A stretch of DNA of 33,893 bases from an uncultured delta proteobacterium (GCA_963712115.1 CAVQGX010000036.1:1-33893), one strand, 5' to 3'. Shown: positions 2,960 through 33,893, counted from the first letter of the stretch. Notes: generated by a model not told the origin, from the sequence alone. A program made the numbers and translations.

Positions 2960-3325
2960 CCGTTTCAACGTTTTCAACGAATTCTCTAATTCTCTAATTT
3001 CGAAATTCGCAATTACTTCGCCATGCTCTTTGCTCTTACCCAATGACAGCGAAGCGTAGTGACCCAATGACGGCGAAGCCAATTGACTCAAATAGCCTTG
3101 CGCCTTGCGCCCTGTGCCTCTCCTCAATCCGCAATCTACAATCTAACATCTACAATCTATCCTATGCCCCATGCTCTATGCCCCATGCCTCTTTTCGTCT
3201 CGCTCGACCTCTCGTCTCGCTCGTCTCGCAGGCTCACGCAGTGAGCTCCCTTGCGCCCTTGATCAATCCGAAATCCGCAATCCCACATCCCACATCTCAC
3301 ATCCGCAATCTAAAATCTTCAATTT
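2960..3325 (+). repeat. Mosaic low-complexity intergenic tract (aatccgc, aatctac, ccatgct, gcgcctt, cgtctcg units plus an ATGAC-hairpin array at 3042-3087)
   Basis: Short degenerate tandem units read directly; the same blocks recur at 1-150, 4500-4700, 6660-6870, 30100-30485, 31620-31815 and 33540-33893. Confidence 0.85.
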
Positions 3326-6611: not shown

Positions 6612-6707
6612 TATCTGTTCTACTCACTTAAGAACTTTTAAAAATCCTTCCAAATGACCTTATCTGTCCTCTGATCTCTGACTTCCGACCTCCGACCCCT
6701 ACCTCTT

Positions 6708-6823
6708 ACAACAAATGACAGCGCAGCGTAATGACGGCGTAGCCTTATGACAGCGTAGCGTAGTGACGGCGTAGCCTTATGACAGCGCAGCGTAGTGACC
6801 CAATGACGGCGAAGCCAAATGAC
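6708..6823 (+). repeat. ATGAC + GCGNAGC mini-hairpin array
   Basis: Longest array in the window, with about six hairpin units. Confidence 0.9.
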
Positions 6824-7089
6824 CCAAATCGCCTTCCGCCCTCTGTCCTCTAGCTACTGGCTACTGACTACTTCTTTGTAGTGCTCCGAGTAATTCCTAT
6901 CGAGATTGTAGTTTTTTTGTATTGACTTGGATTGGCTCGCTAGCATACTATGCTCACGAATGGTTTTTCGGTCATGTTATGGTTGTGTGCATGTTGGATT
7001 TATCTATGGTGAAGTCAGTCACTATGTAGAGATACCACACCATGAAGCTGCGAACTTTAACTATGATAGAAAACTGAGGAGGGTTAGAA

Positions 7090-13687: not shown

Positions 13688-13803
13688 ACGTATCGGATTG
13701 AGCGGAAATCTCAATAACGAAATAATTTGGTTTGATAAGAGGCTGGATGCCATGTGCGTTTAGCCTCTTTTCTTTGTTGTGGACATTGCCTTGACAGCCT
13801 TCG

Positions 13804-13836
13804 ACATTTTGTGCCAGATTAAATTCCAGCAGAGTG
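13804..13836 (+). repeat. Truncated B-site linker (breaks after AGAGTG)
   Basis: acattttgtgccagattaaattccagcagagtg matches 14718-14751, then diverges exactly where the IS110 inserts in the 18379 copy. Confidence 0.75.
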
Positions 13837-14715: not shown

Positions 14716-14776
14716 ACCATATCTTGTGCCAGATTAAATTCCAGGCGAGTGTGAATTAAGGGATGTAATCTTTATT
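14716..14776 (+). repeat. B-type site B4 with partial linker
   Basis: catatcttgtgccagattaaattccaggcg-AGTGTGAATTA-AGGGATG-TAAT (core 14755-14769). Confidence 0.9.
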
Positions 14777-17828: not shown

Positions 17829-18236
17829 ATGGAAGCTAGCTTGTATAAACATAGGGAACAAGACTATTGTGCCGCTCCGTATGTCATCCAAGAGAGGACC
17901 CAAACTCTAGGGGAACTTGGTGACCGCAGAAGAACCGCGAGATTGAGCCTTCGCTTTTCCGTAAAGTTTTGCAAGGAGGGATTGTATTTTCCAGTCGAGG
18001 GAGTGACGGAGAACATTGCGCCTTGCGGAGCTTTAATCAAACTCAATGACTCGCATGCTTTCCAAATCCGCGATCGGATAATCCTCACCTTGTTTCTTCC
18101 ACCCAGTTTTTCTGGCCAAGATACGACCATTAGGCTTCGCGGTTCTGCACAGATCGTCCGGCTAGTCGGGGATAATGAAGGAGTTGCAGTGGAATTTACA
18201 AGGTCCCTCAAGCAATTTAAGAAAACTAATGACTAA
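17829..18236 (+). CDS. PilZ domain protein
   Basis: RRRTAR (RxxxR) and NIAPCG (degenerate D/NxSxxG), GVAVEF; GGAGG RBS. Confidence 0.85.
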   Translation: MEASLYKHREQDYCAAPYVIQERTQTLGELGDRRRTARLSLRFSVKFCKEGLYFPVEGVTENIAPCGALIKLNDSHAFQIRDRIILTLFLPPSFSGQDTTIRLRGSAQIVRLVGDNEGVAVEFTRSLKQFKKTND

Positions 18237-18275
18237 GAGTAAGCAATTGGGCTAGTTAAGCGTCAATATCTGAAC

Positions 18276-18379
18276 TCCACACTTTACCTCTTTAGAGCCA
18301 AGCACAAAAATTTTGGCGGAGCTTCGACTCCGCTTTTTTGTTCTCAACATCCTGTACCAGAGCAAATCCCAGAAGAGTG
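18276..18379 (+). repeat. A-linker-B unit, left part (A core degenerate; B site interrupted by IS110)
   Basis: tccacactttacctct...gcggagcttcgactccgcttttttgttctcaacatcctgt...agaagagtg; continues at 19668 as taaATTA-AGGGATG-TTAT. Confidence 0.85.
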
Positions 18380-18464
18380 ATCATATGAAAAAGCTACCTC
18401 CTTCGAGGCCTTGTATTATACAAGGGGTCTTTGAGGGAAACCCAAAACAAAGGAGGTAGCCACC

Positions 18465-19480
18465 ATGTATTATACTGGGATTGATTTACACAAGAAAACA
18501 TCTTTTATTACTACTATCGATGCAGATGGAAAGATCGTCACCCGAGCCAACCTGCAGAATGTAGAAGAGGACATTTTGGCTTACTTTGCGACCCTAGCAA
18601 AGAGAGCAAAATCGTCATTGAATCTATGTCCTCGTGGTACTGGCTTTATGATCTTCTGACTGGAGAAGGTTTTGAGGTTGCGATCTCCAATCCAGTGAAG
18701 ACCAAGGCCATTGCTTCGGCCAAGATCAAAAACGACAAGATAGACTCTCATATGCTGGCTCAGCTTCTAAGGGCTGATTTGATCTCTACCGTTCATGTAA
18801 GCAGCCTTGAGACACGCAAACTCAAGGAACTACTTCGTCATAGAAGCAGATTGGTTCGAGATGCCACCCGCATGAAGAACCGTATTCATATGCTTTTGAT
18901 GAAGAATAATTTCAGAAGTCCTTTTAGCGATCTTTTTGGTATTCAGGGATTGAGCTATATCAAAGAGATTGACTTGCCAGATTACCACCGCCGACAAGTC
19001 GAGACTTATCTTTCACTTTATCAAGGGCTCCAAGAGCAGATTGAGCCTTTAAGCAAAAGAGTCCGTGTCCTGGCAAAGGAAAACCATACAGCCCAGCTTC
19101 TTATGACTATCCCTGGCATTGGACCTATCACAGCCATGTTCATTGTAGCGGAGGTAGACGATATCTCCCGCTTTCGCTCATATCGGAACCTGGCTTCTTA
19201 CGCTGGTCTGGTGCCTTGTTTAGATGCCAGTGCTGGCAAAGAGAAAAGGGGCAGGATAACCAAACAAGGATCCCGCTACCTGCGCACCGCCCTGGTCGAA
19301 GCTGCCCAGGCTGCAGCCAGAATGCAAAATTGCCGCTTGCGTGTTTTCTTCCGCAGAAGAATCGTCAAGGCTGGCTATCAAAAGGCCATTGTGGCCACAG
19401 CCCATAAGATCTTGCAGTACGCCTTCTACGTTTGGAAAAACCAAACACCTTATCAGGAGACTTATCCTGTTTGTGCGTAA
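18465..19480 (+). pseudogene. IS110 DEDD transposase/recombinase, frameshifted
   Basis: GIDLHK in one frame; KIVIES, KNDKID, IPGIG, YAGLVP..DASAGK and GSRYLRTAL in the next frame; shift at ~18598-18610. Confidence 0.88.
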
Positions 19481-19640
19481 CCCGTTAATTTACATGGCCC
19501 ATGAAAGGTGAGGCCGGCAGAGTGATTGGGACGCCGTTTATCAGATACATGATAGTGTGACACCTTTGGGTGAACACGGATAGGTGTTTGGCGATGAGCC
19601 CAATATCGTGGTTACAAGCGGGCAGCTACAGAGATCTTTG
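19481..19640 (+). ncRNA. Predicted bridge/seek RNA of the IS
   Basis: Two stem-bounded loops; TTAATTTACA and AGAGTG match the target flanks, ATAGGTG matches the IS right end. Confidence 0.75.
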
Positions 19641-19856
19641 ACTTGACAAACAGCTTTTTCATAGGTGTAAATTAAGGGATGTTATGTTTAGTCCTATCGA
19701 ACCAATAGGAAACTTTCTATAACTCGATCTTAAAGTCACTTCTTCCTTGGATCGATGTTCGATTTCTTGGATCAATACTTCGGTACACTTCTTGCTCTCC
19801 AAAAACCTATAAGCAGCATTTGTTACAAACATAGAAGCCAGAATTGATTCACAGCA

Positions 19857-30099: not shown

Positions 30100-30485
30100 A
30101 AAGAATCCAGTAGCCAGTAGTTGAAATGAACTCAATTTTGATTTCTTCTATTCTGTATTCTGTCTCCTGACTTCTTGATTTTAAATCCGCAATCCGCAAT
30201 CCCCAATCTAAAATCTACAATCTGCCTTCCGACCTCCGACCTCTTTCTTCTTTCCCCGTCTCGCCCGACCTCCCGTCTCGCTCGTCTCGCCTCTAACAAC
30301 AAATGACAGCAAAGCGTAATGACCTAATGACGCCGAAGGCAAATGACGCGAAGCCCAATGACAGCGAAGCCGAAGTGACCCAAATCGCCCTGAGCCTTGC
30401 GCCTTGAGCCCTGCGCCTCTCCTCAATCCCAAATCCGAAATCCGAGATCCGAGATCCGCAATCCCAAACTGCCCCATGCTCTATG
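30100..30485 (+). repeat. Mosaic heptamer tract with ATGAC-hairpin array (30296-30379)
   Basis: aatccgc, ccgacct, cgtctcg, gcgcctt and gatccga units. Confidence 0.85.
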
Positions 30486-33539: not shown

Positions 33540-33893
33540 CCTCCGTCCCTCGTCTCGCCTCTGACAACAAATGACAGCGCAGCGTAATGACCTAATGACG
33601 CCGAAGGCAAATGACGCGAAGCCCAATGACAGCGCAGCGTACTGACGGCGCAGCACTAGCTGCCTGTCATCGGTTTAGCCGGTCTCATTCAGCCCTCAGC
33701 TATCAGCGCTCAGCGATCAGCTAAAATCCTGAAATCTACAACCTGTCATCTGATCTCTGACCTCTGACATCTGATCTCCGACCTCCGACCTCTGACCTCT
33801 TTTTCTTTCCCCGTCTCGCCCGACCTCCCGTCTCGCTCGTCTCGCCTCTGACAACAAATGACAGCGCAGCGTAATGACCTAATGACGCCGAAG
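33540..33893 (+). repeat. Two ATGAC-hairpin arrays (33564-33654, 33851-end) and heptamer tract
   Basis: 33778-33893 nearly duplicates 30228-30338. Confidence 0.88.

Follow-up and report, generated by a model that had tools for sequence, protein, structure and literature searches.

An IS1111-group insertion sequence with putative RNA guide segments in the arm of a multicopy palindromic intergenic repeat

Insertion sequences of the IS1111 group have subterminal inverted repeats, usually of 11–13 bp and perfect or nearly perfect, beyond which the left end extends for 7 (or 6) bp and the right end for 3 bp (PMC11187229). Their seekRNA carries a top-strand complement 5′ of a bottom-strand match, and the two overlap in the target (PMC11187229). 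The diverged transposases of ISKpn4, ISPst6, and ISPa25 share one target through shared guide segments (PMC11187229). ISEc11 and ISXne4, which are ~72% identical, have kept their RNA stems while their guides and target differ (PMC11187229).

The locus described here lies in a window of 33,893 nucleotides, the whole stretch of DNA that was analysed, from an uncultured delta proteobacterium (GCA_963712115.1, CAVQGX010000036.1). The host genome is a draft of 70 contigs and 4.9 Mb with an estimated contamination of 5.99%, and the window is its contig C36. The preferred reading, given a probability of roughly 90%, is that an RNA-guided IS1111-group insertion sequence landed in the left arm of one multicopy palindromic intergenic repeat. 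Throughout, a slash within a sequence marks the insertion point.

The element and its insertion site

Four copies of the element are present in the genome, on contigs C36 (the window), C41, C42, and C48, with identities of 90–100%. The features of the window copy and its flanks are as follows.

18380–19667, + strand: IS1111-type IS110-family insertion sequence of 1288 bp, delimited by the identical ends of the four genome copies and by an empty-site contig from run X1 that lacks exactly 1288 bases
18384–18395, + strand: left subterminal inverted repeat TATGAAAAAGCT (pair I3, 12 nt, 100% complementary)
18465–19480, + strand: DEDD transposase gene, broken here into ORFs 18465–18659 and 18626–19480 (ORFs; Pfam PF01548 and PF02371; alignment with the intact 338-aa C48 copy)
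19652–19663, + strand: right subterminal inverted repeat AGCTTTTTCATA (pair I3)
18329–18379, + strand: left flank, comprising the conserved left extension of the B repeat and the first 4 nt (AGTG) of the left arm (direct-repeat family D14; consensus of 85 B sites with ~40 conserved nt left of the arm)
19668–19692, + strand: right flank, the remaining B core (TAAATTA, spacer AGGGATG, right arm TTATGTTTAGT)

As GTG ends the left flank and also the right tip of the element, the boundary can be placed anywhere from 18377–19664 to 18380–19667. With the boundary at 18380–19667, the perfect 12-nt inverted repeat begins 4 nt in from both tips. Non-coding DNA amounts to 85 nt on the 5′ side of the transposase gene (18380–18464) versus 187 nt on the 3′ side (19481–19667). 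Two further features were seen near the ends. Through a perfect 11-nt inverted repeat (18393–18403 with 18450–18460), the AAGGAGG ribosome-binding site of the transposase gene can pair with the left end of the IS, and such a hairpin could keep read-through transcripts untranslated. At 19643–19648, 19 nt from the right tip, lies a consensus TTGACA whose spacing from the tip is shared by the distant relatives L012, L013, and L015. This motif may be the −35 box of a circle-junction promoter, or of one that reads outward to the NlpC/P60 gene at 19857.

The transposase places the element in the IS110 family, having an N-terminal DEDD/RuvC-like domain and the PF02371 C-terminal domain. PF01548 matches both window fragments, with E values of 0.00059 for the short first ORF, which is under the cut-off, and 2.8e-18, and PF02371 matches the window element with an E value of 3.6e-29. 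The intact copy scores 266.2 bits against the NCBIfam model NF033542 ('IS110 family RNA-guided transposase'; cut-off 140). The only solved structures with a sequence match are the transposases of IS621 (PDB 8wt6, E 2.8e-13) and ISCro4 (E 8.6e-13), and the best plasmid-borne relatives are <40% identical and annotated merely as 'IS110 family transposase'. The C-terminal motif, GL-P----S(t)G in the IS1111 group, reads GLVPCLDASAG in the intact protein, with SA at the position where SG, TG, and occasionally TA have been described. Together with the 12-nt inverted repeats and the long 3′ non-coding region, these domains bear out the initial annotation of the element as an IS1111-type member of the IS110 family.

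Alignment of the four genome copies revealed a 1-nt deletion between 18597 and 18598 that breaks the frame of the window copy. The C42 copy carries a one-base insertion at another position, and the C48 and C41 copies encode an uninterrupted protein of 338 aa. Because its transposase frame is broken, the window copy could be mobile only with help of the intact C48 and C41 copies. Contigs with an extra A behind 18597 are present in the public runs X1 and X15, possibly from the C48 copy, and since that copy is 98% identical they decide nothing on the window frameshift. X15 is an RNA run; DNA carry-over is possible in it, hence its contigs over the element are no sign of transcription.

The site occupied by the element belongs to a repeat in which a 7-nt spacer separates two 11-nt arms in inverted orientation, the left arm AGTGTGAATTA being far better conserved than the right. 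Searching the 4.9-Mb genome with a broader pattern identified 147 such sites, comprising 87 with the spacer AGGGATG (B type), 45 with AAGTATG (A type), and 15 others. In silico removal of 18380–19667 joins ...CCCAGAAGAGTG to TAAATTAAGGGATGTTAT and restores AGAAGAGTG-TAAATTA-AGGGATG-TTATGTTTAGT, which has two departures from the 23-mer B consensus. The element splits the left arm of the B repeat at AGTG/TAAATTA.

The locus was also observed in its empty form. One 350-nt contig of run X1 follows 18080–18376 with one other letter and then continues at 19665, skipping 1288 bases, with three letters that fit either side. In run X4, two contigs pass from 18379 directly into TAAATTAAGGGATGTAAT. As the contigs of both runs bridge the two flanks, the locus exists without the element, be it as the ancestral allele or as a post-excision state. 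The restored B site and the exact 1288 bases missing from the X1 contig confirm the earlier proposal of a precise insertion into a B site.

It had further been proposed that the insertion probably disables the site by splitting its left arm. The split is real, while the disabling is doubtful as the tip of the element rebuilds most of the arm. The right junction after insertion reads GGTG-TAAATTA-AGGGATG, so that the arm becomes GGTGTAAATTA versus AGTGTAAATTA, with 10 of 11 bases retained. The palindromic core survives insertion, and what is severed is its link to the ~40-nt left extension and to a terminator-like hairpin at 18319–18345 (identified by eye).

Guide segments, predicted RNA, and relatives

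By analogy with the published systems, the 3′ non-coding region would encode a seek/bridge RNA. In one internal loop of this RNA, 10 nt would be complementary to the top strand across the core TG and 8 nt of right flank, and another 7–8 nt would repeat the top-strand sequence of the left flank and core TG and pair with the bottom strand. The RNA would be made, bind the transposase, and direct recombination via a circular intermediate, with the RNA-loaded transposase recombining the circularised element with any DNA to which both segments correspond. Per genome, about 200 near-matches are offered by the repeat arm (N5)TG/TGRATTAA. The segments assigned to these roles are as follows.

19478–19603, + strand: core of the 3′ non-coding sequence conserved among relatives; predicted seek/bridge RNA in which stems enclose two internal loops (alignment A1, consensus fold)
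19485–19494, + strand: putative right-target guide (block 1) TTAATTTACA, complementary to the top-strand core TG and right flank TAAATTAA (repeat pair I4, 19482–19494 with 19666–19678, 92%; covariation over 50 loci)
19517–19524, + strand: putative left-target guide (block 2) GCAGAGTG, the last 6 nt of which equal the left flank AGAGTG, pairing with the bottom strand (covariation over 42 loci)
19580–19586, + strand: ATAGGTG, the same as the right tip of the element, candidate donor guide (invariant in 29/29 relatives; 3′ side of the second internal loop)

Alignment A1 comprises 29 relatives over the 126 nt after the stop codon, with a mean column identity of 83% and variation in the two guide blocks. 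RNAalifold places blocks 1 and 2 on opposite sides of one internal loop, which CCCG:UGGG closes on the outside and a GGCC hairpin on the inside. Another internal loop, around a CACC:GGUG hairpin, is enclosed by a second stem, CGCCG:UGGCG. The first bases of the left end have their complement in the segment AUGAU, which, like ATAGGTG, never varies; the variable pair after AUGAU (AG, AA, AT, CC etc.) displayed no consistent covariation when inspected by eye. Stem cells are paired in 98.8% of cases versus 31–45% with the partner slid, and the window RNA has a minimum-free-energy z-score of −2.58. Compensatory change occurs in only 1 of 23 stem pairs, and with the stems nearly invariant, support for the fold comes from conservation and energy, not from covariation. 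An Rfam search of 18200–19800 returned two chance-level matches (E 0.81 and 1) and no curated bridge or seek RNA family. The predicted layout, with two loops, resembles that of bridge RNAs, in which one loop binds the target and the other the donor (PMC11208160).

Block 1 consists of the 10 nt between CCCG and UGGCC and is the reverse complement of the core TG and the 8 nt of right flank that follow it. In block 2, the 7–8 nt before AUUGGGACGCC are identical to the left flank including the core. The two guides overlap in the target at the TG core, which is defined as TG because some subgroups carry TTG or CTG at the left flank. Across relatives, the guides change together with the flanks. Right guides match their flanks at a mean of 5.81 of 8 positions over 26 distinct pairs, compared with 3.21 for shuffled pairings (sd 0.32, maximum 4.38 in 2000). 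For left guides the mean is 4.68 of 6 over 34 distinct pairs, compared with 2.17 (sd 0.20, maximum 2.94). A tally of the listed rows gave at least 7/8 matches for the right guide in 35/50 loci and at least 5/6 for the left guide in 30/42. Examples are TTTTTCGACA with TG/TCGAAAAA, GAATATCGCA with TG/CGATATTC, and AAACCTTG with a left flank ending in AAACCTTG. At least 19 guide classes occur among ~50 loci, at identities from 66% to 92%.

Eight of the 50 loci have a right guide that matches at 5/8 or fewer positions (L015, L058–L060, L031, L034, L038, L039). L015 and L058–L060 form a subgroup with a guide ending in CC, where a one-base register shift fits L015, L059, and L060 by eye, and not L058. 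The poor right-guide matches of L034, L038, and L039 have no explanation, and the left guide of L042 matches at 1/6.

The fine detail of the guides follows that of the repeat. Block 1 of the window, TTAATTTACA, is found at 1/50 loci and is perfectly complementary to its own flank TGTAAATTAA; the arm variant AGTGTAA of the window site is the left arm in only 6/147 sites. The guide TTAATCCACA lies in A-type arms at 9/11 loci and the guide TTAATTCACA in B-type arms at 7/8. In agreement with these guide variants, the base before ATTA is G in 32/44 A sites and A in 71/85 B sites. A 15-nt target was then predicted from the guides of each copy and scored on the genome with the four elements removed in silico. 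The own site of each genome copy has 0–1 mismatch to its predicted target; that of C41 is perfect and unique, and that of C36 is among seven with one mismatch, none being perfect. Each copy also has 1–3 perfect and 7–27 one-mismatch targets that are unoccupied, so guide match alone does not predict occupancy. The fit of each copy to its own flanks is expected because donor-copy flanks must also match the guide for movement (PMC11187229). The comparison of guides and flanks suggests that insertion specificity is written in the guide RNA region of the element itself.

A metagenome scan for relatives identified 74 loci, which may count one insertion in several samples (e.g. L019 and L021). Close relatives were defined by ≥80% amino-acid identity, and 23 of them have a readable right flank, including the four genome copies and a partial copy in the sister-species genome G015. 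All four genome copies are flanked by (A/G)AGTG on the left and T(G/A)(A/G)ATTA on the right. Three are in B-type sites and the C48 copy is in the opposite (right) arm of a B-like site, which indicates that the recognised sequence is the arm and not the spacer. The G015 copy abuts TGAATTAAGGGATGTAAT at the same position, and five further loci of which the left flank alone is readable end in AGTG. Half-sites cut off after the spacer are also occupied (L021, L024, L032, L071), and as several occupied sites end there, the arm alone is the likely target.

The initial annotation had expected homologues at the same GTG in B-type arms. This is true for position in 19/23 close relatives (four genome copies, G015, and 14 metagenome loci), and the range of sites is wider than expected, with A-type arms, the right arm, and half-sites also in use. 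Close homologues in other targets, which had been named as the finding that would count against the idea, do exist: 3/23 (L027, L028, L030; 80–87% identity) sit in GAGACTG/TCGAAAAA, but their guide has changed with the target, which fits the mechanism. The last of the 23, L031, has a window-type guide region combined with the right end and target of another subtype (L061-like, tip GGCA); either the element is a natural hybrid or the low-coverage contig is chimeric. At sequence level, the target is ~15 nt of arm sequence, N5-TG-TGRATTAA, rather than the B site as such.

More distant relatives, at about 72–75% identity in other MAGs (L013:1435–1500, L014, L035–L037, L067), are found at TTG/TGATATC. 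That position lies at the outer margin of a different palindromic repeat, TGTGATAT-CATAAA-ATATCACA, after which comes a motif similar to the sequence that adjoins the window A sites. Other lineages appear to have analogous repeat families of their own.

It could be argued that the transposase or a host factor reads the repeat hairpin or palindrome directly and that the non-coding complementarity is incidental. Several subgroup targets are indeed palindromic (TGTGAATTA-N7-TAATTCACA here and the CATAAA-spaced repeat in L013, L014, and L035–L037), and insertion is always at the outer edge of the arm. This is very unlikely to be the explanation, as guides change base for base with flanks even where the target is not palindromic, as for GAGACTG/TCGAAAAA (L027, L028, L030) and AAACCTTG/CGATATTC (L044–L048). 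The occupied half-sites have no second arm to form a palindrome, and the RNA was essential in published experiments on relatives (PMC11187229).

Still less probable is that copies spread by duplication of an element-bearing repeat unit instead of by repeated targeted insertion. The repeat itself is multicopy and parts of its flanks recur, as such a process would have it. Against this, the four genome copies differ beyond ~15 nt on each side, the C48 copy occupies the opposite arm of its site, runs X1 and X4 contain empty alleles of the window locus, and the left guide of each copy fits its own flank. That the junctions are assembly artefacts at a repeat, with the element not truly at this locus, is the least credible explanation: the assembly is a fragmented draft with some estimated contamination and another window B site (13836) coincides with the end of contig C34, but both junctions are continuous in the window, independent assemblies contain the same junction type, and the length skipped in an independent contig is exactly that of the element.

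Targeted, RNA-guided insertion remains the preferred reading, and on it these loci form a natural data set for RNA-guided transposition, with ~50 loci of one IS clade and at least 19 guide classes. Single-base guide variants follow single-base target variants inside one repeat family, and the predicted RNA has a compact 126-nt core with two obvious programmable segments. The data support the published seekRNA/bridge-RNA model in uncultured sediment bacteria.

The target repeat

The window contains six matches to the 23-mer B consensus with at most three mismatches, versus none in 100 shuffles. In both A and B types, ~40 nt left of the left arm are conserved. Of the 147 genomic sites, 33 are in neighbour pairs <300 nt apart, and 13/17 pairs are convergent A/B pairs with a spacing of 67–68 or 123–139 nt. 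The repeat is present in 19/22 genomes of the order and in 17/17 other genomes of the genus, with 4–79 copies each, compared with 0 for a reversed-pattern control. By genus, it occurs in g1 and g2, and the search gave no match in g3–g5. The suggestion that the site is a widespread conserved entity was therefore correct, and the A/B repeat is a real, old, and genus-wide entity. A close copy of the IS is found in only 1/17 other genus genomes, a possible undercount as draft genomes often lose repeats. Given this difference in distribution, the repeat is the more interesting question than the IS.

Within the window, 17 A/B sites lie in ~22 kb (7680–30053), a density far above the genome average. 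All nine B sites are on the + strand and all eight A sites on the − strand, giving an array-like polar layout between mostly single + strand genes. These genes are ordinary chromosomal ones, encoding FabH-like, aminotransferase, PdxS/PdxT, DegP-like protease, GGDEF, PilZ, FHA, caspase-TPR, and NlpC/P60 proteins, and a scan of 20 window proteins detected neither an integrase nor a recombinase. Tandem blocks of 7–8-nt repeats (AATCCGC, CTAATTCT, GACCTCT and similar) flank several genes, at 44–134, 2962–3325, 6663–6872, 30184–30467, and 33742–33807.

The extent of the repeat unit varies between sites. At 19668–19750, the 60–80 nt right of the B core are found again, at 74–95% identity, at 20 or more further positions across the genus, three of which are in the window genome. 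As these nucleotides recur beyond the core, some B sites are part of a longer rightward repeat unit. A second B left extension, at 13780–13836, ends in GAGTG, the IS insertion position, and 886 nt of unique sequence separate it from a complete B site at 14723–14751. Contig C34 terminates with 57 nt that are 100% identical to the stretch up to 13836, and this junction could be an assembly branch or a rearrangement. An IS remnant at 13836 was considered and rejected; the likeness to the left end of the IS is loose and by eye, and the 886 nt have no similarity to the IS or to a transposase.

Several traits of the repeat are REP-like, namely a short imperfect palindrome, 147 copies, and partly inverted doublets. 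No RAYT (Y1 transposase) partner was found around the PF01797 genes in the genome, as none of the four matches has a site within ~2 kb and three have none within 4 kb. Because no Y1-transposase gene is flanked by it, the repeat appears to behave like a REP/BIME-type element without an identified partner enzyme. The 11-7-11 geometry and the better conserved left arm also resemble dif/Xer-type sites. Such sites have inverted arms, a short spacer, and a dedicated recombinase, and normally occur in one or few copies per replicon. That ~150 copies are dispersed, in either orientation, speaks against active recombination. A literature text search for the site motifs found nothing relevant, and a DNA search of the genus genomes for an orthologous empty site found the flanking gene not conserved at the DNA level.

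It is possible, at somewhat less than even odds, that the target is an undescribed genus-wide element of ~75 nt. Such an element would consist of the 40-nt extension and the 11-7-11 core with A or B spacers, strand-polar in the window and without a RAYT partner. The IS guides would be split over A arms, B arms, and rare variants, and sister IS clades of sulfate-reducer-type MAGs would occupy the same edge of analogous TGTGA...TCACA palindromes. If this is true, the guides of the IS clade would be a ready-made probe for finding such repeat families and dating their spread.

Comparison with known systems

In its mode of insertion the element behaves as an IS110-family member. Insertion is site- and orientation-specific, every copy in a repeat arm having the same orientation relative to the arm, and there is no true target duplication, with only the 2–3-nt core (TG/GTG) shared. 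The 12-nt inverted repeats, the longer non-coding region downstream, and a protein of 338 aa, within the 330–350 aa range, are those of the IS1111 group. A small departure is seen in the terminal extensions beyond the inverted repeats, which total 8 nt (4+4, 5+3, 6+2, or 7+1) versus the 9–10 described. The order of the putative guides is that of IS1111 seekRNAs, with the right guide (19485–19494) 5′ of the left guide (19517–19524).

ISPa11, which inserts into the REP of Pseudomonas aeruginosa, is likewise of IS1111 type with a multicopy palindromic intergenic target, a downstream seekRNA, and the same guide order (PMC11187229). Judged from its description, it differs in host group, target, and guide. 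ISPpu9 of Pseudomonas putida KT2440, an IS110-family element, is described as likewise having several copies in REP and a small RNA gene downstream of its transposase (PMC12288879). ISKpn4, ISPst6, and ISPa25 similarly have a fixed insertion point, at one end of the integron attC, which is a structured, recombination-type site present in many copies (PMC11187229), whereas the target in the window has no integron link.

As in ISEc11 and ISXne4, guides are replaced while stems are kept, here at identities from 66% to 92%. Unlike in that pair, redirection here is also by single bases within one repeat family, between A arms, B arms, and a rare variant. IS621 belongs to the same transposase family and, like the RNA predicted here, has two internal loops, each with an identical and a complementary segment, and a dinucleotide core; in contrast to the present element, its RNA is in the left end, its guide order is reversed, and its subterminal repeats are just 2–3 bp (PMC11208160). 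The element is hence an added member of the IS1111 group, and its mechanism is very probably the published seekRNA/bridge-RNA one.
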